A stretch of DNA of 64,000 bases from NCBI GenBank assembly GCA_038065615.1, contig JBBTQQ010000005.1, positions 7,984 through 71,983 on the forward strand, given 5' to 3'. Every line of letters starts with the position of its first letter. Position 1 is the first letter of the stretch. Source of the stretch: Patescibacteria group bacterium (lineage in GTDB: Bacteria > Patescibacteriota > Doudnabacteria > UBA920 > VMFF01). Below, one piece after another: positions 3,869 to 50,929 of this stretch. The position numbers and the translations under genes were made by a program. Under the pieces are notes generated by a model. The model saw nothing but the letters and a program-made list of their open reading frames with translations. It did no database searches and had not been told where the DNA came from.

Positions 3869-5692
3869 ATGGCAAAAATAATCGGAATAGACTTAGGAAC
3901 ATCAAACTCTGCAGCTTCAGTGATGGAAGGCGGAAAGCCTGTAATTATTCCATCAGCAGAAGGAAACAGCATTGCTGGCAAAGCATTCCCTTCTTACGTT
4001 GCGTTTACAAAAGAAGGGCAGCTTTTAGTTGGTGAACCTGCAAGAAGACAAGCAGTTACTAACCCAGAAGGAACTGTTTTTGAAGCAAAAAGAAAAATGG
4101 GTACTAGCTTTAAGTATTCATTAAACGGAAAAGAATACACCCCAGAACAAATTTCCGCGTTCATCTTACAAAAGATTAAAAAGGATGCTGAAAGCTATGC
4201 TGGAGGCGCAATCTCTCAAGCAGTTATTACAGTCCCTGCTTACTTTGACGATGCTCAAAGACAAGCAACAAAAAACGCAGGTGAGATTGCTGGTTTAGAG
4301 GTTGTTAGAATAATCAACGAACCAACGGCAGCAGCTTTAGCTTACGGGTTAGACAAAGTTGGGCAAGAACAAAAGATCTTAGTCTTTGACCTTGGCGGTG
4401 GAACATTAGATGTTACAACAATGGACTTTGGCCAAGGAGTTTTTGAAGTCATCTCAACATCAGGTGATACACAGCTTGGTGGTAAAGACATGGACTCTGC
4501 TGTGATCAACCACATCATAACCACATTCAAACACGAAAGCGGTATTGATGTTTCAGCAGACAAAATGGCTTTAAATAGAGTTAGAGAAGCAGCTGAAAAA
4601 GCAAAGATTGAACTTTCTACAACAATGGAAACAGATCTAAACCTTCCTTTCATTACAGCAGATGCAAATGGTCCAAAACATCTGACTATGAAAATAACCA
4701 GAGCGAAATTAGAAGAGTTGGTTAAACCAATTATTGAGAAATTAAGACATCCAATGGAGCAGGCAATCGCAGATGCAAAATTAACTCCTAACCAGATTGA
4801 TAAAGTTATATTGGTTGGTGGTCCTACTCGTATGCCTATTGTTCAGAAATTCGTTGAAGACTTTGTTGGTAAACAAATAGAACGTGGTATTGATCCAATG
4901 GAAGCAGTTGCAAAAGGAGCTGCAATCCAAGCCGGTGTTTTAGGCGGTGAAGTAAAAGACATTCTTTTACTTGATGTTACTCCTTTAACACTTGGTCTTG
5001 AAACAATGGGTGGTATTAGAACACCATTAATTGATAGAAACACAACAGTTCCAACATCAAAGTCTCAGGTATTTAGCACAGCTGCTGATAATCAGACATC
5101 AGTGGAGATAAACGTGTTGCAAGGGGAGCGTGAGTTTGCTAAAGACAACAAAACTTTAGGTAAGTTCATACTAGACGGAATTCCACCAGCACCACGTGGC
5201 GTGCCACAAGTTGAAGTTGCTTTTGACATAGATGCAAACGGTATCTTAACTGTTAAAGCAAAAGACAAAGCAAGCGGTAAAGAACAACACATCACAATTC
5301 AAGGTTCTTCAAACCTTTCAAAAGATGATATTGAAAGAATGAGAAAAGAAGCAGAAGAGCACGCTTCTGAAGACAAGAAAAGAAGAGAAACAGTTGAAAT
5401 CCGAAACCAAGCAGATACCTTAATTTCTGTTTCTGAAAAAACCTTGAAAGATGCAGGAGACAAAGCTCCTGAAGCAGACAGAAAAGATGCTCAGGAAAAA
5501 CTAGACGCTCTAAAAAACACCAAAGACAAAGATGATGTTGATGCAATCAAAAAAGCCTTAGATGAGCTTTCCATATCAATTCAAAAGATTGGTGCTGCAA
5601 TGTATCAGCAAACACCGCCTGAACAAGCATCCGGAACAGAACCTTCTGGTGAAAACAAAGAAGGACCAGTGGATGCAGAGGTTGTTAAATAA
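3869..5692 (+). CDS. dnaK: molecular chaperone DnaK (Hsp70)
   Basis: [18 protein letters not shown] and other Hsp70 signatures across 607 aa. Confidence 0.97.
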
Positions 5693-20413: not shown

Positions 20414-20891
20414 CCACTCTATATATTAGTTGCAGAAACGGCGCTAATTACTTTAAGAGTTTAACTATATGTTTCAAAGGTTGTCAAATATACCTCAAAA
20501 AAACAACCCATAACTATAATCCCTAATATCTGGGTGTGATATACTACTAAATGCGAAGAAAAGGCAATAAACAAAGGGGGTTTAGTACCGTTGACAAAGT
20601 AAGGGTACTGTGTTAAATTACAGTGTTAGTTGGTCCTTTATATATATTTCATCCAGCCCCCTATTTGCGAGTAGCGAAAATAGATATGAATCCCTCCTAC
20701 TATTTGTAAGTAGCTATCAAGTAAAGGTTGGCAGCGTTTGTTGTCTTCCTTTCACTCGTAAATAGGGTATTGTATGAAATATTAAAGCGCTTTTGCGCTT
20801 TTTTGTTTTTATGGTATATTAAGTTGCTCACTCACACACGAGAGAGAGGCGCCGTGGCCAGACACACGGTAAAACTCGCAGGAGGTTTGCG

Positions 20892-21821
20892 ATGTCGGTA
20901 TCAGACGTTGCGGGCCGGGACAATGTCCCGTCGAGTGCAACCCCGAACATCCGTCACGATGACGGACAGGGCTTGGAATTTCACGACGCGTTGGTTCGTG
21001 CTGGCTTGACCAGGCATGACCGACAGCATGTGATCAGTTCCAAGGGGAACCTTGTTGCCCAGTCTATCGTCATGGGCATCAGGGTTGTCGCCCAGCAGGA
21101 ACGCGATCTGAAGTGGCGGGACCCGAGGGCCTGGTCTGTATCCTCGGATTGTGGATATCCGGAGAGCTTGTCTTTCCGGAGCCACGAGACCCAGGTTCGG
21201 GTTTACAAGCAGCTGTTCGGAAATCTCGATGGTTCGCACGTCGACCAGATCATTCGGAATACAGCGTTCCCAGAAGAAGCAGATCTCTGGGCTGTGATTC
21301 CCAAGCCTTGGGTCATTGCTGAGGATGTTTTCTCGGCAATGCGCCTGATGGTCGAGAAGCTCTCCGAGCTCGGGATCGTGGTTGAGAACAAGGCTGCGTA
21401 CGAGATGGACGAGGCGCACATGCACCTCATCACCAAGATGCAGATGTTCTACGCCAAGCAACACAACCACCCCGGCGACTTCATCGTACTTCCTGTCCAG
21501 TTCGGCAAGAACTGGGCCGGGCACTCGCTGGTTTCGTCCAAGGCGCAGCACAGCATCGAGGAGTTCTCGTTGGATCCGTATGCCATCTTGGCGTTGCTCT
21601 ACACGCATCCAGAACGACTGCGGGGCGAACATCAGGAACTCGGCATCCGCTGTGGCGGGGTCCTGCTGGATCGACACCACGATGACCACGACGAAGTGAC
21701 CGGTGATCACCATCTCTGCTTCCGCTGGTTCCGCGATGGGTTGCTGATCTCAGCAGACCACGGCATGTGGGACCGCGAAGCGGCCTTGGGCATCCCGACT
21801 GGCTTCGACATCGACATCTAA
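20892..21821 (+). CDS. hypothetical His-rich protein encoded in a high-GC island
   Basis: 309 aa ORF with AGGAGG RBS 8 nt upstream of the ATG; GC markedly higher than flanks; long antisense ORF 20901-21713 considered an artefact of GC richness. Confidence 0.55.
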   Translation: MSVSDVAGRDNVPSSATPNIRHDDGQGLEFHDALVRAGLTRHDRQHVISSKGNLVAQSIVMGIRVVAQQERDLKWRDPRAWSVSSDCGYPESLSFRSHETQVRVYKQLFGNLDGSHVDQIIRNTAFPEEADLWAVIPKPWVIAEDVFSAMRLMVEKLSELGIVVENKAAYEMDEAHMHLITKMQMFYAKQHNHPGDFIVLPVQFGKNWAGHSLVSSKAQHSIEEFSLDPYAILALLYTHPERLRGEHQELGIRCGGVLLDRHHDDHDEVTGDHHLCFRWFRDGLLISADHGMWDREAALGIPTGFDIDI

Positions 21822-21825
21822 CACG

Positions 21826-21888
21826 ACGCAAAAGGCGCGGGTTCTGCAAGACTAACTATCTTGTAGAATCCGCGCCGCTTCGTTTTTT
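21826..21888 (+). terminator. terminator of the high-GC island gene
   Basis: GGCGCGG...CCGCGCC stem followed by T-run. Confidence 0.45.
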
Positions 21889-21899
21889 ATATATCTTCT

Positions 21900-22430
21900 T
21901 TAAACCTTTTCTTTTAACTCCAGAAGAACTCTTGCTTTAATACTTTCAAAAGGAATTTGTTCTAACTCTTCATCTGAAAAATCTTGCAAGACAAAAGCAT
22001 CTGTCGGCATATGTTCCTTGTTCTCTCTGCTTTCAACACCAATTCGTATTCTTCGAAACTCCTTAGTACCAAGATAGTCGATTAATGAGGTAACTCCGTT
22101 GTGTCCTGCTGATCCTGAGTTGTCTGTAAACTTAATTGTCCCTAAAGGTAAATCTACATCGTCATGCAAAACCACAATATCCTTTGGTGTTAGCTTGTAG
22201 AAATCAAGAACCTGTTTTACAGCTTTTCCAGAGTCATTCATAAAGGTCTGAGGGAAAATGAAAAAAGTTTTTCCCGGCATATGTATTTCACAAATCTTTG
22301 AGTCAAAACTTGAATTACAAGAGATTGTTTGTAGTTCTTTCAAGATATGATCCAAAGCCAAGAACCCGACATTGTGTCGGTTGTTTTTGTATTTCTCACC
22401 AGGATTTCCAAGCCCAATGATTACCTGCAT
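21900..22430 (-). CDS. pth: peptidyl-tRNA hydrolase
   Basis: MQVIIGLGNPG...NRHNVGF signature. Confidence 0.9.
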   Translation of the reverse strand: MQVIIGLGNPGEKYKNNRHNVGFLALDHILKELQTISCNSSFDSKICEIHMPGKTFFIFPQTFMNDSGKAVKQVLDFYKLTPKDIVVLHDDVDLPLGTIKFTDNSGSAGHNGVTSLIDYLGTKEFRRIRIGVESRENKEHMPTDAFVLQDFSDEELEQIPFESIKARVLLELKEKV

Positions 22431-31503: not shown

Positions 31504-31728
31504 AGAGTAGATGATCTGCGCGATGGGAGCTCGGATCGAATCTAGACGGAGGGTGCAGGGATAATTTTAAGCAACAATTCAAAACAAAGAACGCAACGGA
31601 CTTCTACGCAAACCGAGGCGTTTTTTGTTTGTCCAAAGGATTTGGCAAAACCCGTACCTTATGTTAATTTTATATGTCGCGGTACATGCCGTGATACAAG
31701 TAGGTTCACAGTCTGACACGGAGGACTC

Positions 31729-32445
31729 TTGGACAAACTGATGTTGCTTAACCGTATGGTGTTGGCTCTTGACGATATGGAACCGGATCAGATCGGTGAG
31801 CTGATCGCTGCACTTGCTCACAATGATCTTCTTCCATGGTCGTTCAAGGTCAACGATCGTTGGGTCGAGAGTGGAAAGCAGACGGTACCGATGTTGCGTC
31901 TTGCGGCCGGCGGTGCTCACGTCAGGGTGCTCGCAGACCTGAAGCTCAGCGACACCCCCAAGACCATGAGCGCAAGCGCGAGGCGGGTGCGCGAGGCGGG
32001 TGCAGTTGCACTCACAATCCATGCCAGCTGCGGCCTTGATTCCATCAAGGCTGCGCTTGAGCACGGTCCAGCGGAGATCATTGCTGTGACCTTGCTCACC
32101 TCGATCAATCGGATGAACTGCCTGGCGCTCTACGGGCGTGAGCCGATTGAGCAGGTCAAGATCTTTGCCAAATACGCGCTCGAGAGCGGGGTTGGCAATC
32201 TGGTCTGCTCCGGGGAAGAAGTCGCGACGCTTCACGAGATGTACCCTGGCATCGGTCTGCTGGTTCCCGGTGTTCGTATGCCGGGTAGCGACCTTCGGGG
32301 TCAGAAGCGCATCACTACGCCATGGGATGCTTTCAACAACGGTGCAACGCGCATCGTTGTCGGAAGCGAAGTCACGATGGCGAAGGACCCAGTGGCTACG
32401 TTCGAGAATCTGCTCGCGGAAACTGAGAAGCACGTGGAGTTCTGA
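31729..32445 (+). CDS. pyrF: orotidine 5'-phosphate decarboxylase (type 1), high-GC
   Basis: VLALDD N-terminal motif, catalytic DLKLSDTPKT (DxKxxD) and C-terminal RIVVGSEVTMAKDP phosphate-binding motif. Confidence 0.75.
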   Translation: MDKLMLLNRMVLALDDMEPDQIGELIAALAHNDLLPWSFKVNDRWVESGKQTVPMLRLAAGGAHVRVLADLKLSDTPKTMSASARRVREAGAVALTIHASCGLDSIKAALEHGPAEIIAVTLLTSINRMNCLALYGREPIEQVKIFAKYALESGVGNLVCSGEEVATLHEMYPGIGLLVPGVRMPGSDLRGQKRITTPWDAFNNGATRIVVGSEVTMAKDPVATFENLLAETEKHVEF

Positions 32446-32465
32446 CACCAACCGGAGGAGGAAGG

Positions 32466-33161
32466 ATGATAGTAACTGGGGGAAGGTGGCAGAACGAAGC
32501 TGTGACAAGCTTCCTAGACTCCCTCTGGGCCTTTGGCGCCATCATGGGCGTCGACAAGTCGCCAGAGGGCAAGGGGTTTCGGCTTGCGCTTCACGAGCGT
32601 AACCCAGATGCCCCACTCTCGCCGTTCTACTTCAACCTGCGGCGGGTCCAGTCGCACCCGGCGACCCTGTACATGGCAGCACAGATGATGAGGGAGAAGA
32701 TCATCGAGGATATTGATGGTGGTGCTTTCCAACTCATCGCCGGCATTCCAACTGCCGGTACACCGTTTTCGACAGCCTTGTCCCTGCTGATGCATCGCGG
32801 ACAGGTGTCGCCGCGGATGCAGGCGAAGGGGCACGGGGTTGGTGATCTCGTGGATGGTGACTTCCATGACGGGCAGACCGTTCTGTTGGTCGACGATCTG
32901 ATCACCGAGGCTGATTCCAAGCTTCGTGCGATCGACATCCTGCAGCGCGCCGGTCTCATCGTTCAGAATATCGCCGTCCTGATCGACCGGGAACAGGGCG
33001 GCAGACAGCGGCTTGAGGCTGCTGGGTACAAGGTTCACCCCGTCTTCACGGTCACTGAAGTCTTCTCCTACTACCTGGCTGCTGGTGAATCCACCCAGTC
33101 CGCCTACGACCAGATCGTGGAGTACCTCGACCGCGAAGCCGAGAAGCACGCGAACCAGTAA
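32466..33161 (+). CDS. pyrE: orotate phosphoribosyltransferase, high-GC
   Basis: SPFYFN and VLLVDDLITEADSKLRAIDILQRAGLIVQNIAVLIDREQGG align closely with E. coli PyrE PRPP-binding region; GGAGGAGG RBS. Confidence 0.8.
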   Translation: MIVTGGRWQNEAVTSFLDSLWAFGAIMGVDKSPEGKGFRLALHERNPDAPLSPFYFNLRRVQSHPATLYMAAQMMREKIIEDIDGGAFQLIAGIPTAGTPFSTALSLLMHRGQVSPRMQAKGHGVGDLVDGDFHDGQTVLLVDDLITEADSKLRAIDILQRAGLIVQNIAVLIDREQGGRQRLEAAGYKVHPVFTVTEVFSYYLAAGESTQSAYDQIVEYLDREAEKHANQ

Positions 33162-33220
33162 CAAACAATCGACAAGAGGAAAAACCGTCCCTGGAGGAGG
33201 ACGGATGAAAGAAACAGGCT

Positions 33221-33262
33221 ATGGCTCTGGTGCAGATTTTGTACCAGAGCCTGCTGTTTTTT
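33221..33262 (+). terminator. terminator closing the pyrFE island
   Basis: GGCTCTGGT...ACCAGAGCC stem then TGCTGTTTTTT. Confidence 0.55.
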
Positions 33263-33325
33263 AGTGATTGTGGATAAACTTGATTTAGTTGTTTAAAAAG
33301 GTTGAAATTATTGGATTTTTGATAT

Positions 33326-45688: not shown

Positions 45689-46540
45689 ATGCTAGCTGAA
45701 CAAATATTAAAAACCATAAAATACTTTGATGTTCAAAATCACCCTTTGACGCTTTTAGAGATACATAAATATTTGCTTGCAGACAAAGGTATTAAAGCAA
45801 CAGTTTCAGAAATACTAACAATCCTAGAAACAGACTTAAAAGACAAAGTTCAAACAACAAACGGTTTCTACTACTTGAATGGTAGAAGTGAAATTTCAGA
45901 ACAAAGATTAAAAAACAACATCTTTGCAACCAAACGATTAAAAAGAACAAAAAAATATCTTTCAAAAATTAAATACATACCTTTCATAAAAGGTCTTGCT
46001 GTTGGTGGTTCTGAAGCAATCACCAATTCCAGAGAGGGAAGTGATATTGATTTATTTGTTTTAACCAAACCCAACAGAATTTGGCTAGCAAGACTTTTCC
46101 TAAGTGCATACTTTCAAATTTTTGGGGTTAGAAGACATGGCAAAAAAACAGCAAATCGTTTTTGTTTAAACCACTACATAGAACAAGGTAAACTTTTAAA
46201 AAGGGAACAGCATATATATTCAGCAGTAGAATATATTTCTTTAATCCCATACTTTGGAGGAGAAGAAATTTATGAATTTCAAAAAACAAACATTTCTTGG
46301 ATTAAAGAATACTTAGCTCAACCACAGATTGTTAAATACACAACTCCAAAAGCAGCGAAGGTAACAGAGATATTTGAAAAGATGCTACAGAATAGACTCG
46401 GAGACTTCTTAGAAAAAATATCAGGTAAATTTCAGACAAAAAAAATACACCTTCAGGATAGCATAGTGTTAGAGAAAGACGAGCTTGCTTTCCACCCAGG
46501 AAACAAAGGTAGACAAGTAATGAGTAAATTTAACCTTTAA
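45689..46540 (+). CDS. putative minimal nucleotidyltransferase (Pol-beta superfamily)
   Basis: GGSEAITNSREGSDIDLFVL matches hG[GS]x9-13DxD NTase signature; start placed at ATG after the upstream stop. Confidence 0.5.
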   Translation: MLAEQILKTIKYFDVQNHPLTLLEIHKYLLADKGIKATVSEILTILETDLKDKVQTTNGFYYLNGRSEISEQRLKNNIFATKRLKRTKKYLSKIKYIPFIKGLAVGGSEAITNSREGSDIDLFVLTKPNRIWLARLFLSAYFQIFGVRRHGKKTANRFCLNHYIEQGKLLKREQHIYSAVEYISLIPYFGGEEIYEFQKTNISWIKEYLAQPQIVKYTTPKAAKVTEIFEKMLQNRLGDFLEKISGKFQTKKIHLQDSIVLEKDELAFHPGNKGRQVMSKFNL

Positions 46541-46590
46541 AAACGACGAGGCCCCGCAGACAAAAGCAGTCTGGGGGCCTCACGGGGGTT

Positions 46591-46761
46591 TCACGGCTTC
46601 GTCGTGTCGATGACAGCCGCGGGCGGCGTCTGGGCGGCCGCTCTCGGCTTCGGGGTCTGGTTGACGAAGAAGTAGCCGGCTACAAGCGCGCAGACGATGA
46701 TGACGAACGCGATCGTCCATGTGCTTGGTCCGGTGTCCACCGTGGCACGCTTGCCGAACAT
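46591..46761 (-). CDS. small high-GC single-TM protein (56 aa)
   Basis: AGGAGGG RBS 5 nt upstream of ATG on the minus strand; MFGKRATVDTGPSTWTIAFVIIVCALVAGYFFV; high GC unlike neighbours. Confidence 0.4.
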   Translation of the reverse strand: MFGKRATVDTGPSTWTIAFVIIVCALVAGYFFVNQTPKPRAAAQTPPAAVIDTTKP

Positions 46762-46908
46762 AGTCCCTCCTGCGATCCCTCGCATGTTGAAGTGGTGCTG
46801 CGTGATACTGCGTGGGGTTTCATTGCATATTGCCACATCTGTTTTAAAAAATCAAGCGCAACAAAACACCCTAAAGAATGCTCTTTAGGGTGTTTAAATT
46901 AGATGTAT

Positions 46909-47562
46909 TTAAACTTTCTTTATGACCTCTGCGATATATCCTGGTTCTGTAATGGAATGCGTATAGCTATTCAGTATTAAACTTACTAATTCATCCTTAT
47001 GTACAAAAGAAACATCATCAGAAACATGATTAACACCACCATCGCGCATATTCGGCATAACAAGGATCGCATTAACCCAAATTTTTTTTCTGCAGTACGC
47101 ATCAATGAAATGCTTTAACTTCATTGCACCACGATGTGATTGATTTAAAAAAGCATGCATTTGTCCCTGGTTTGGGTGATAGTGGCTTTTGACTTCAATC
47201 GCAAAAATTCCAGTTGGACCAATAACAGCAAAATCAATATCACCGCCGTGTCTTAAAGAGAGGTCTTGGAAAACATAAAAGTCATGTGGTAGGCGAAGAA
47301 GTTCTTTTTTGATGCTTTCTTCACCCCAGATTCCTCTTGAAAATCTATGAGATCTTTTTTCAAAAAGTTTAGCCAAGCTGTAACCGAGAGGGATTAATAG
47401 AACAATCAAAAGCATCCAATCAGAAAGAGAAGAGTAGGTATCAACATCACGCTGGGTTAAATAACTCAAAAACAAGAACAGTCCTAAGGTTATGACAAAC
47501 AGAAGAATAAAAAGAGACTCTTTTCTTTGCAGGAAACTGCTTTTTTTAATGTATATAGCCAT
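46909..47562 (-). CDS. NERD (nuclease-related domain) protein, membrane-anchored
   Basis: GDIDFAVIGPTGIFAIEVKSH motif characteristic of NERD; N-terminal TM helices; low GC. Confidence 0.7.
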   Translation of the reverse strand: MAIYIKKSSFLQRKESLFILLFVITLGLFLFLSYLTQRDVDTYSSLSDWMLLIVLLIPLGYSLAKLFEKRSHRFSRGIWGEESIKKELLRLPHDFYVFQDLSLRHGGDIDFAVIGPTGIFAIEVKSHYHPNQGQMHAFLNQSHRGAMKLKHFIDAYCRKKIWVNAILVMPNMRDGGVNHVSDDVSFVHKDELVSLILNSYTHSITEPGYIAEVIKKV

Positions 47563-47602
47563 TACTGTTTTATTCTAGCACTTTTGGATCCTCTGTGGAG
47601 GG

Positions 47603-47631
47603 TTGACATGGTAAGTCCTTGGTGTTAATAT
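47603..47631 (+). promoter_or_regulatory. consensus-like sigma70 promoter (TTGACA-17-TAATAT)
   Basis: TTGACA at 47603-47608, 17-nt spacer, TAATAT at 47626-47631; drives the high-GC small ORF. Confidence 0.5.
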
Positions 47632-47776
47632 GCTTTTTCTACAGTATTCTCCTGCAGCCGCTCGCGTGAGCGAAGCGGAAGCAACACAAGCCCAGAGGGC
47701 GAGTGGCTGTAGGAAACCCTTTCGTTCTGGCACAAGGGTCCAGATACGAAGGACAACTCGTTCGGAGGAACCATCT

Positions 47777-47945
47777 GATGACCACCACGAGCACCGGCCG
47801 ACTGCGGACCCGCAAGCCCCAGGCGAGCATTTTTCCCACCATCATGGACATCCTGGACGCGGTGAAGCACGACGACGGCAGCGGGCAGCAGGGCATCGAC
47901 AAGGCGCCGGCCACGCAGTCCGACGGCAGCGGCACCGCGCAGTAG
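47777..47945 (+). CDS. small high-GC hypothetical protein (56 aa)
   Basis: GGAGGA RBS 9 nt upstream of the ATG; MTTTSTGRLRTRKPQASIFPTIMDILDAVKHDDG; followed by several GC-rich hairpins to about 48095. Confidence 0.35.
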
Positions 47946-48339
47946 CAAGGCGGCGCCGGGTCACCAGGGAAGCTCGCCCCGAGGCGCTCGGGGCGGGCAA
48001 CCCCAGGTTTTCCTGGGGAGCAAGCGAAGAAGCAGCAACCGCATTGGTTGACTGCTTTTTTCGTCCCTTTCTTAGGTCCTTGACAAACTAGCAATATTTA
48101 GTTAATATTCCCAGTTAAAACAAAATATTAGTTATGGCTCCTGATTTCGTGCATACGGATTGGGGGCAACCCAAAAGGCTTGTGTAAGAGCATTTATTTA
48201 TGAGGCTCTATGGCACGAGTCTTTTTGTTTTGTATATTTAATACTTTGTTAATGAATTTTTAATGTTTTTTGCGTATTAATAGTAGGAAGGTTAAAAAGG
48301 AATATTAGTTTAGATCTAGTCTGTGTTTTCAGGAGCGCG

Positions 48340-48368
48340 TTGACATATGGGGTCTTTTGTTTTAAAAT
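48340..48368 (+). promoter_or_regulatory. sigma70 promoter for rpmF (TTGACA-17-TAAAAT)
   Basis: TTGACA 48340-48345, TAAAAT 48363-48368, about 40 nt upstream of rpmF. Confidence 0.45.
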
Positions 48369-48408
48369 GAAACCTGTATATTAACTTGATAATCATAAAA
48401 CTATGGGT

Positions 48409-50062: not shown

Positions 50063-50139
50063 CGGGAACTGGCTCAATTGGCTAGAGCGCTCGCTTTGGG
50101 AGCGAGAGGTTCCGGGTTCGAGTCCCGGGTTCCCGACCA
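50063..50139 (+). tRNA. tRNA-Pro (anticodon TGG)
   Basis: CGGGAAC acceptor pairs with GTTCCCG; anticodon loop TTTGGGA; GGTTCGAGTCC T-loop; CCA encoded. Confidence 0.85.
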
Positions 50140-50190
50140 AAATAATTCCGGTTCCCCCGGTTTTTATTTAAGTTGAAATTAGGAGGATGC

Positions 50191-50865
50191 GTGAAATCAT
50201 ATTTAAAACAAAAGGCAATACAACTGCGCAAAGAAGGTTGGTCATACAGCGTTATCCAAAAAAGAACAGGGATATCTAAGAGCACCCTTAGTAATTGGCT
50301 TGGTAATTTACCGTACAGACCAAACTTAGAAGTTAGAAAGAGCATAAAAGAAGGACCGTTGCGTTCTGCTATTATGCGCAGAAAAGCTAAGATCAGGAGT
50401 ATAAGAGAGATTAAAATAGCTGCAGCAAAAGAATTAGGTAAGCTTTCCAAAAGAGATAAGTGGATGTTAGGTTTGGCTATTTATATGGGTGAAGGTTCAA
50501 AGACTCATGATAATATTAGGGTTGTAAACTCAAACCCAGAAATAATTAAAAGTGCTGTTAAATGGTTTAGTAATAATTGTGATGTGCCATTAGCTAATCT
50601 CGCTATTAGGGTCCATTCATATCCTGATATAGACCAAGACAAGACTAAAGTATATTGGTCAGGAGTTACTGGTATACCCTTAAGCCAGTTTTTTAAAAAT
50701 CATATAGATACCAGGACAAACAAATCAGTTTTGAAAAAACGTAAATTGCAATATGGGACTGCCCATTTAATAATCAAGAGTTGTGGAAAAATAAAATTTG
50801 GGGTAATCTTACATAGAAGAATTATGGGCTGGATACAAGAAGCCTATAAACAAATGCGGGTATAG
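50191..50865 (+). CDS. HTH plus LAGLIDADG-like (single-motif) putative homing endonuclease, between two tRNA genes
   Basis: AGGAGG RBS 4 nt before GTG; N-terminal HTH (SVIQKRTGISKSTLSNWL), WMLGLAIYMGEGSK resembles a LAGLIDADG motif; 3' end overlaps tRNA-Gly by 10 nt. Confidence 0.4.
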   Translation: MKSYLKQKAIQLRKEGWSYSVIQKRTGISKSTLSNWLGNLPYRPNLEVRKSIKEGPLRSAIMRRKAKIRSIREIKIAAAKELGKLSKRDKWMLGLAIYMGEGSKTHDNIRVVNSNPEIIKSAVKWFSNNCDVPLANLAIRVHSYPDIDQDKTKVYWSGVTGIPLSQFFKNHIDTRTNKSVLKKRKLQYGTAHLIIKSCGKIKFGVILHRRIMGWIQEAYKQMRV

Positions 50866-50929
50866 TTTAGTGGTCAAACGCCTCCCTTCCAAGGAGAAGT
50901 CGCGGGTTCGATTCCCACTACCCGCTCCA
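50856..50929 (+). tRNA. tRNA-Gly (anticodon TCC)
   Basis: GCGGGTA/TACCCGC acceptor, anticodon loop CTTCCAA, GGTTCGATTCC T-loop, CCA; one mismatch each in anticodon and T stems. Confidence 0.7.

Follow-up and report, generated by a model that had tools for sequence, protein, structure and literature searches.

GC-rich small-gene units beside a NERD-domain gene in Candidatus Doudnabacteria: a possible case of mRNA design by base composition

The stretch of DNA analysed here (the window) is 64,000 nt long, has a guanine-plus-cytosine (GC) content of approximately 37% and comes from Candidatus Doudnabacteria (Patescibacteria) of Hainich groundwater. It contains a low-GC gene for a NERD-domain protein with a GC-rich segment, or island, on either side, each carrying one short open reading frame (ORF): ORF A to the left on the minus strand, and ORF B to the right on the plus strand. 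Our preferred explanation, to which we assign a probability of about 0.45, is that the islands form two distinct transcription units, each complete and inherited vertically, and that RNA-level selection maintains their composition, through mRNAs that are "armoured" against decay and a leader that acts as a switch. Promoters, transcript ends, translation and function are inferred throughout from sequence and conservation. Each unit has a predicted, conserved AT-rich sigma-70-type promoter, a GGAGG Shine-Dalgarno (SD) sequence, a single short ORF and a conserved intrinsic terminator.

In 200-nt windows, GC is 0.58-0.64 in the left segment (46541-46835) and 0.61-0.72 in the right segment (47640-48062), against 0.35-0.39 in the NERD gene between them and a background of approximately 0.37; the bin from 47701 to 48000 (GC 0.663) is the most GC-rich 300-nt bin in the window. 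The two ORFs are themselves atypical, with a GC content of 0.64-0.68 and a third-position GC (GC3) of 0.84-0.95, compared with 0.37 and approximately 0.3. High GC begins within approximately 10-15 nt of each predicted transcription start and ceases at each terminator. An earlier note on this DNA had described the high-low-high mosaic around NERD, and both the GC values and its recurrence in independent assemblies and other species bear this out. The same note had the small genes flanking NERD in divergent orientation, which holds for NERD and ORF B, whose promoters are back to back, but not for ORF A and NERD, which are co-directional (both on the minus strand).

More than 10 assemblies, made independently and spanning several wells, size fractions and sequencing runs, contain the locus with its GC mosaic. 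At least 21 contigs of independent assemblies (Hainich H32, H41, H43 and H52, and other Logan runs) encode the NERD protein, with constant neighbours and spacing. Islands and NERD are almost invariant at the strain level, except for a 48-nt repeat in ORF B, and the same junctions also occur in other species and in datasets from other continents. Relatives were retrieved by scanning GTDB species representatives with the neighbouring RelA/SpoT protein, which yielded metagenome-assembled genomes of Candidatus Doudnabacteria and other Patescibacteria; RelA identity to the window is 96% for locus L019, 93% for L013 and L014, 76% for L020 and 72% for L017. The order of a 298-aa nucleotidyltransferase-like gene, ORF A, NERD, ORF B, a small RNA (sRNA) candidate and L32 is identical in the species-level relatives L013, L014, L019 and L035, and all four keep the high-low-high GC profile. 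Co-occurrence of NERD with the small ORFs holds in these four loci, but L020 has similar islands without NERD. Sharp compositional breaks such as these could point to an assembly chimera or a contaminant mis-join; this explanation is refuted by the presence of the same junctions in independently assembled contigs (different wells, fractions and runs) and in other species, and we give it virtually no credence. Nor are the small ORFs unconserved by-products of such a mis-join, an outcome that the earlier note had allowed for: they are conserved, and their junctions recur independently.

Transcription of ORF B is predicted to start from a TTGACA-17-TAATAT promoter with a TG extension before the -10 element (47603-47631, plus strand). 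This promoter had been proposed previously and was recovered by our promoter scan; both hexamers are kept in six orthologues, and the spacer varies. The predicted transcript comprises a leader of approximately 140 nt (47637-47777), with a domain of approximately 90 nt running from the predicted start, a second hairpin and the SD sequence GGAGGA (47764-47769); ORF B itself (47778-47945); and a 3' untranslated region (UTR) of approximately 115 nt (47946-48061). A start at 47777 had been given for the ORF, which is one base off because 169 nt is not a multiple of three: the small plus-strand ORF is real, but it has 55 rather than 56 aa. The 3' UTR contains a conserved segment (GGUCACCAGGGAAGCUC), two hairpins and the intrinsic terminator. 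Three GC-rich hairpins had indeed been reported, at 48000-48095, but their correct positions are 47972-47998 (conserved), 48001-48018 (conserved, with an A-U to U-A compensatory swap) and 48029-48061 (the terminator hairpin); positions 48062-48095 of the reported span are the promoter region of the next unit (48080-48108).

The full ORF B transcript is more folded than shuffled sequences (z = -4.6). In all six orthologues tested, the leader (z = -3.0 to -4.6) and the 3' UTR (z = -4.3 to -8.9) are also more folded than shuffles, whereas dinucleotide shuffles of the coding part fold better than the coding part itself (z = +1.1 to +2.6, again six of six). Folding is therefore not what the GC-richness of ORF B serves.

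Two mutually exclusive folds are predicted for the leader domain. The first (S1) is a three-way junction proposed by RNAalifold; the helix that closes it begins at the predicted 5' end and pairs 47639-47647 with approximately 47706-47714. The 35 pairs of S1 are formed in 96.3% of alignment cells, compared with 36-45% in slid controls, and six of them show double changes. The second (S2) is a 15-bp helix between 47651-47665 and 47699-47713, with 96.2% of cells paired over 15 pairs, compared with 29-51% in slid controls, and three double changes. Columns 33 and 34 of the leader change jointly with both of their partners, columns 43/44 and 74/75, as a two-state element predicts. This covariation was scored in seven sequences from essentially two clades. 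A covariance model of the domain matches orthologous sites only, and not the islands of L017 or L020. Rfam 15 contains no match to 47630-48065 or 46540-46840, whether at gathering thresholds or at E <= 10, or to the relatives, and ARAGORN found no transfer-messenger RNA. Pairing between a UUCCU in the leader and the SD was considered and rejected, as the complementarity is inconsistent across species.

ORF A (46591-46761, minus strand) encodes 56 aa, with a short N-terminus, an invariant GP, a transmembrane (TM) helix and a Pro/Ala/Thr-rich tail (predicted peptide ATVDTGPSTWTIAFVIIVCALVAGYFFVNQTPKPR). Its coordinates, single TM segment and strong ribosome-binding site were correctly given in the earlier note: AlphaFold2 predicts a single helix at residues 12-34, and GGAGG lies 4-5 nt before the ATG. 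The ORF is intact in five of five loci (the window, L013, L014, L019 and L035; 54-58 aa), and the orthologues have in common a TPPAAV.DTTKP-like tail and, ahead of the TM helix, the invariant GP. At the three codon positions GC is 0.53/0.56/0.84, and dN/dS, the ratio of nonsynonymous to synonymous substitution rates, is 0.28-0.94, compared with 0.01-0.15 for native neighbours. Most simply, ORF A would be a small envelope protein.

The leader and putative promoter of ORF A form the 5' region of its unit (46762-46835, minus strand), with the -35 element just beyond it. The leader has an invariant 5' segment (AUGAAACCCCCACGCAG) and an invariant hairpin, CCUGCGA-GGGA-UCGCAGG (plus-strand 46769-46785), that abuts the GGAGG SD; the 16-nt core of this hairpin is exact in 15 loci and occurs once in the window. 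Because it is invariant, the SD-proximal hairpin gives no covariation evidence. The promoter, TTGATT-17-(TGG)CAATAT, has its -35 element TTGATT at 46850-46855 and an extended -10 (TGGCAATAT) at 46827-46835; its hexamers are invariant and its spacer variable in the orthologue alignment, but we call it putative because it falls below the threshold of the promoter scan. At its 3' end, ORF A shares a bidirectional intrinsic terminator, a GC-rich hairpin at 46548-46581, with the 298-aa gene on the plus strand. Compensatory changes maintain pairing of this stem across five species, and the 60 nt 3' of ORF A are more folded than shuffles (z = -2.9 to -5.0). In the 5' region of the unit, 29 nt at 46818-46846 have 76% direct similarity, on the same strand, to 47544-47572 at the 5' end of NERD; this may be a duplication remnant or a chance match, and is not obviously kept in L013.

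Two more distant relatives have GC-rich islands in a different context. L020 carries them at both equivalent positions (next to the 298-aa gene, and next to the sRNA candidate and L32), flanking groES-groEL. The protein of its left island has 106 aa and a single TM segment (GC3 0.79), a GP-TM layout like that of ORF A and 26% identity to it, and there is a hairpin at the SD; the right island encodes a 54-aa hydrophilic protein (GC3 0.85). L017 has a right-hand GC-rich RNA island only, downstream of groEL, and no left island of the ORF A type. This island (4880-5330, minus strand of the locus) is an RNA of approximately 450 nt with approximately nine near-perfect hairpins and its own predicted TTGACA-17-TAATAT promoter; we found no convincing ORF in it and no Rfam match. 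In this RNA, the first helix (CAGCAGCCGCTCG...AGCGGCTGTGGGAAA) is similar to the outer one in the leader of ORF B. The equivalence of island B with the islands of L017 and L020 is positional only, because the covariance model misses both, and that of island A with the left island of L020 is supported by GP-TM layout only. The groESL genes of the window genome are absent from the window and from the retrieved loci.

ORF B encodes a hydrophilic, mostly disordered protein whose head is basic and whose Gly/Ser-rich tail is acidic (predicted peptides KPQASIFPTIMDILDAVK, HDDGSGQQGIDK and APATQSDGSGTAQ). Its N-terminus (MTTTSxxxxRTRKPQ) and C-terminus (PATQSDGSGTAQ) are conserved and its middle is variable; AlphaFold2 yields a predicted TM-score (pTM) of 0.22 and one short helix, which lies in a non-conserved stretch. 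The frame is intact in seven of seven orthologues (49-55 aa, and 71 aa in the repeat variant P0002); two of the orthologues, L036 and L034, come from ENA and JGI contigs. GC by codon position is 0.57/0.54/0.95, with C at 54%, G at 41%, A at 2% and T at 4% of third positions; U content is 9%, and there are nearly no A/U runs. The dN/dS values (0.64-1.24) are to be compared with 0.01-0.15 for native neighbours. Most simply, ORF B would be a small disordered cytoplasmic protein. The sequences of ORF A and ORF B either evolve fast, or only their composition and topology matter.

An alternative is that the islands are structured non-coding RNAs, their ORFs being by-products that are untranslated or of which only the act of translation counts. 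GC-rich islands in AT-rich genomes are said usually to mark structural RNAs; the UTRs are more conserved than the middle of ORF B, the full transcript folds beyond shuffles (z = -4.6), dN/dS is near 1, and the multi-hairpin RNA of approximately 450 nt in L017 stands at an equivalent place with no convincing ORF. We nevertheless consider this quite unlikely. The SD (GGAGGA) and ATG of ORF B are invariant in the orthologues; the gaps within the ORF are all multiples of three and its repeat varies in frame, whereas gaps in the UTRs are of 1, 2, 4, 5 and 10 nt. In addition, GC shows strong three-base periodicity, the ORF part is consistently less folded than shuffles, and in ORF A a conserved GP motif accompanies a clean TM helix. 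These features suggest that both ORFs are translated. The possibility, raised in the earlier note, that 47638-48095 is a structured sRNA therefore holds for the leader and 3' UTR, which are strongly structured with compensatory changes, but the segment is not purely RNA, since a frame-conserved ORF is present.

ORF B also contains an in-frame tandem-repeat polymorphism with a 48-nt unit (47860-47932, plus strand). The window has approximately 1.5 units, whereas L002 (5583-5690) and L007 have 2.2 perfect units, and copy number varies between co-occurring strains. The repeat breaks or gaps several assemblies: L004 has a run of N there, and the contigs of L006 and L008 end. It is conceivable that both genes are low-complexity sequences that arose de novo by slippage, with GGC/AGC/GAC and 48-nt repeats regenerating GC-rich coding sequence despite the mutation bias. 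The variable-number repeat, the micro-repeats and many in-frame indels of ORF B fit such an origin, as do the orphan status of the genes and a GC-rich insertion with an Ala/Gly/Ser/His low-complexity repeat (approximately 8330-8520 of L017) in the homologue of the 298-aa gene; GC-rich low-complexity coding sequence thus also arises inside native genes of this group. However, slippage leaves unexplained the GC-rich, non-repetitive and covarying UTRs, the TM segment of ORF A and the GC-rich enzyme genes elsewhere in the window, and we regard it as highly improbable.

No relatives of the two ORFs were found outside the clade, and on this basis both appear to be lineage-specific orphans. In a word-indexed search of 5.8 billion proteins, ORF A finds itself alone and ORF B finds four clade-internal proteins only; an exhaustive search of 1.84 billion representatives with an HMMER profile, made for ORF B only, returned two representatives of its own family and nothing else. 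Neither ORF matches Pfam, NCBIfam, PADLOC or PHROGs. The islands have no blastn match among phages and plasmids and none in an IMG/VR scan (for which the ORF A alignment was too variable), and the JGI metagenomes contributed one more Doudnabacteria contig only and no donor. There is no other copy of either island within the window. The block has no mobility genes, tRNA target or conserved flanking repeats: its only terminal inverted match is 13 nt long and is not kept even in strain L002, and matches flanking it are short and unconserved. No literature on GC-rich small genes in Patescibacteria was found.

The islands have kept their composition. Native genes have a GC3 of 0.25-0.37, compared with 0.84 for ORF A, 0.95 for ORF B and 0.76-0.98 for their orthologues, and native synonymous divergence (dS) between the same genome pairs is approximately 0.3-1.8, near synonymous saturation. 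Because GC3 is high in all orthologues despite such near-saturated neighbours, the composition has been retained, and is not that of a recent transfer yet to ameliorate. When substitutions in the two islands were polarised by parsimony with the other clade as outgroup, 88 changes from G or C to A or T (S>W) were counted and 62 in the reverse direction (W>S); a host-type bias would give an S>W:W>S ratio of approximately 3.8:1 (native equilibrium) or 2.5:1 (empirical native ratio). A larger GC-rich gene at 32466-33161, for a phosphoribosyltransferase (PRTase), offers a cleaner test with a similar outcome; it is conserved in L021 and L014. Its dS is 0.9-1.7, its dN/dS 0.09-0.2 and its GC3 0.73-0.76 in all three genomes, and its third positions show 46 S>W and 18 W>S changes, where the bias of the neighbouring nrdR predicts approximately 11:1; nrdR itself is 97-100% identical and has a GC3 of 0.32. 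The estimated substitution regime of the GC-rich units is thus 3-4 times less AT-directed than that of adjacent genes. Two GC-rich (57-60%) transcription units with AT-rich promoters were observed elsewhere in the window: one at approximately 20826-21900 contains a 309-aa ORF with no Pfam or NCBIfam match, and one at approximately 31690-33300 contains the genes for orotidine monophosphate (OMP) decarboxylase and the PRTase.

These data bear on the suggestion that the islands are foreign DNA. As a recent acquisition or contaminant, an idea put forward in the earlier note, this is not borne out: the islands occupy the same site across species, and no donor homologue, mobility genes or conserved flanking repeats were found. 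Old horizontal acquisitions from a high-GC donor (e.g. an actinobacterial-type host or neighbour), placed behind host promoters in an ancestor of this Doudnabacteria subclade and ameliorating slowly, would make the GC content a relic. The codon-position profile of ORF B is that of a product of a genome with approximately 70% GC, other GC-rich genes of the window have recognisable functions (OMP decarboxylase and phosphoribosyltransferase, approximately 58% GC), the polarised changes show a net S>W excess, and horizontal gene transfer (HGT) into groundwater Patescibacteria is on record (PMC12455944). We still judge an old transfer unlikely. Outside the clade, no homologue of either ORF was found in proteins (word-based searches for both, the exhaustive profile search for ORF B only) or in JGI, viral, plasmid and phage collections; no lineage departs from a GC3 of 0.76-0.98, though native dS is 0.3-1.8; and the S>W:W>S ratio is 3-4 times below the prediction of host-type bias. 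Moreover, the GC-rich edges are transcript edges rather than gene or insertion edges, with neither conserved flanking repeats nor mobility genes beside them.

The gene between the islands (46909-47562, minus strand) was correctly described as a low-GC NERD gene with a membrane anchor: it has N-terminal hydrophobic segments and scores 44.7 bits with PF08378, for which the gathering cutoff is 22.1 (E = 2.2e-11); the match covers positions 1-110 of the 111 in the profile. Its GC3 is 0.31, and its orthologues in L013, L014, L019 and L035 have 75-88% amino acid identity, with a dN/dS of 0.08-0.13; it is missing from L017 and L020, where groES-groEL sits at that site. A perfect 14-bp hairpin at 46864-46895 (100% complementary inverted repeat, minus strand), AT-rich and host-like, is its predicted terminator, and different hairpins stand at that position in L013 and L014. 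The NERD promoter (47599-47572, minus strand) is back to back with that of ORF B, their -35 elements lying only 3 nt apart. Its extended -10, TGcTAGAAT, ends 9 nt ahead of the ATG and there is no SD, so NERD appears to have a transcript of its own that is probably leaderless. The conserved TTCTAGCAC was considered as a CIRCE/HrcA site; this was rejected, because the extended -10 of the NERD promoter accounts for it better.

The block at 46600-48400 (ORF A, NERD, ORF B and the sRNA candidate) differs from L002 by one single-nucleotide polymorphism (SNP), whereas flanking genes differ by approximately 5%, and the left edge of this block is sharp and falls at the ORF A terminator. One SNP in 1.8 kb implies that the block recombines or sweeps as a unit, and suggests recent recombination or a gene-specific sweep. 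Such joint inheritance might be expected of a three-gene toxin/immunity or defence module built around a membrane NERD nuclease, in which ORF A would be a type I-like membrane toxin or an immunity protein and ORF B a regulator; the earlier note had put forward a small toxin/immunity-like or regulatory module. Within the NERD clade the three genes and the sRNA candidate are co-inherited, and the 1.8-kb block has 1 SNP between strains approximately 5% apart in its flanks; ORF A has the size and shape of small membrane toxins, with an SD that abuts an invariant hairpin, and the promoter of ORF B lies back to back with that of NERD. Yet the small proteins match no toxin-antitoxin (TA) or defence family in PADLOC, Pfam, NCBIfam or PHROGs, and the defence matches of NERD are sub-threshold only (12.9 bits to PADLOC model PDC-S01). 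Each gene has its own promoter and terminator. On the plus strand of island A (46540-46840), no antisense promoter was found in a consensus scan, which could miss weak or atypical ones. A NERD-specific module is also unlikely because the equivalent islands of L020 flank groES-groEL and L017 has the right-hand island alone. We therefore hold such a module to be very unlikely, and infer that NERD adjoins the small-gene units as a neighbour and does not demonstrably belong to them.

With these alternatives weighed, the reading of the islands as RNA-selected transcription units can be set out as a mechanism. In the ORF B mRNA, the 5' stem at the transcription start and the 3' hairpins would block exonucleolytic and 5'-end-dependent decay, while a U-poor, unstructured ORF would offer few AU-rich sites to endonucleases and still be translatable. 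The outcome would be long-lived, translatable mRNAs for small proteins, with the GC-rich composition held by RNA-level selection rather than as a relic of transfer. The leader would be a conformational switch that sets the accessibility of the 5' end, and through it mRNA stability and/or translation, and the products would be fast-evolving small proteins of the envelope or cytoplasm.

Several points weigh against this reading. The leader and ORF of unit A are not more folded than shuffles, and only its terminator is significantly folded; the armoured design is clear for unit B only. Amino acid constraint, as gauged by dN/dS, is weak for both ORFs, with only terminal motifs conserved, and open frames of approximately 50 codons are not rare in DNA of 70% GC; the proteins may be of little consequence, or it may be translation as such that counts. 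The substitution test is clear against 3.8:1 and marginal against 2.5:1 (island B), and its parsimony rests on partly saturated sites. Both the islands and the PRTase still show a modest net loss of GC, with which slowed amelioration of an old transfer would be compatible. As the seven leader sequences fall into two clades, independent covariation events are few, and no clear structural link from the leader switch to the SD was found.

The wider claim, that this lineage maintains by selection a set of GC-saturated, U-depleted units (two orphan genes and at least one enzyme gene), with a hitherto undescribed 5' RNA switch of approximately 90 nt in the ORF B unit, is more doubtful, and we offer it as speculation. 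If it is true, base composition would be a functional feature of mRNA design, making transcripts RNase-proof or selectively translated via rare G/C-ending codons; if selected, this would be natural mRNA design by composition in an ultra-small uncultivated bacterium. The locus also yields a candidate new cis-regulatory RNA and two candidate new small-protein families. When parts of a metagenome-assembled genome deviate in composition, they are routinely put down to contamination or recent transfer, whereas here they are conserved units, a practical warning for GC-based binning, decontamination and HGT-detection pipelines.

Downstream of ORF B lies the independent sRNA-like unit (48080-48226, plus strand), with a TTGACA-17-TAATAT promoter at 48080-48108 a predicted two-hairpin RNA of approximately 100 nt (approximately 48112-48226) and a T-run. 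A few of its pairs are compensatory, and Rfam has no match to it. The unit exceeds the islands in conservation and stands beside L32 in every Doudnabacteria locus, L017 and L020 among them; it is outside the GC islands but always adjoins the right-hand one. Further downstream, a 230-aa ORF (50173-50865, plus strand) with a weak HTH_23 match lies between tRNA-Pro (50063-50139) and tRNA-Gly (50856-50929), and its 3' end overlaps the start of tRNA-Gly by approximately 10 nt.

Among known systems, the islands may be compared with acquired genomic islets and their amelioration (Lawrence and Ochman 1997, as cited in PMC12455944). In groundwater Patescibacteria, old transfers are expected to lose their compositional signal (PMC12455944). 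The islands resemble such islets in base composition and codon usage that are atypical of the host; they differ in occupying the same site in all close relatives, in the lack of a donor, mobility genes or flanking repeats in our searches, and in having retained their composition. A second comparison is with GC-rich RNA islands, which reportedly mark structural RNA genes in AT-rich genomes, a result attributed to Klein, Misulovin and Eddy in PNAS in 2002. Here too sharp GC peaks coincide with transcription units of strongly folded RNA, but GC peaks in a frame-conserved, under-folded ORF and at third codon positions, and the host is from cold groundwater and is not a thermophile.

Type I TA loci such as hok/sok, tisB/istR and fst offer a parallel for ORF A, which has fewer than 60 aa, one TM helix, a structured mRNA and a hairpin at the SD; pairing between the 5' and 3' ends of its transcript is also predicted (RNAalifold). 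Unlike these loci, ORF A has no antisense promoter in our consensus scan and no family match, and its predicted long, Pro/Ala/Thr-rich extracytoplasmic tail is atypical. Mutually exclusive helices are found in riboswitch and attenuator platforms, and stabilising stem-loops at the 5' ends of the ompA, ermC and aprE leaders. The ORF B leader is like the former in that strand 47651-47665 has two partners with three-way coordinated changes, and like the latter in that one of its folds pairs the very 5' end of the transcript. In contrast to riboswitches and attenuators, it belongs to no Rfam class, the switch could not be tied to a ligand, a terminator or an SD-sequestering helix, and support for the switch comes from two clades.

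Small-protein mRNAs and dual-function RNAs with large structured UTRs include RNAIII/hld, SgrS/SgrT and SR1/SR1P. As in these, a short ORF makes up approximately 40% of a conserved structured transcript with its own promoter and terminator; the units described here have no sequence or Rfam relationship to them, and to our knowledge extreme deviation from host composition is not one of their features. Small-protein genes with structured UTRs are thus a known kind, and what is unusual in the present units is the persistent and extreme GC contrast, the way in which transcript boundaries confine it, and the leader as a candidate two-state element.

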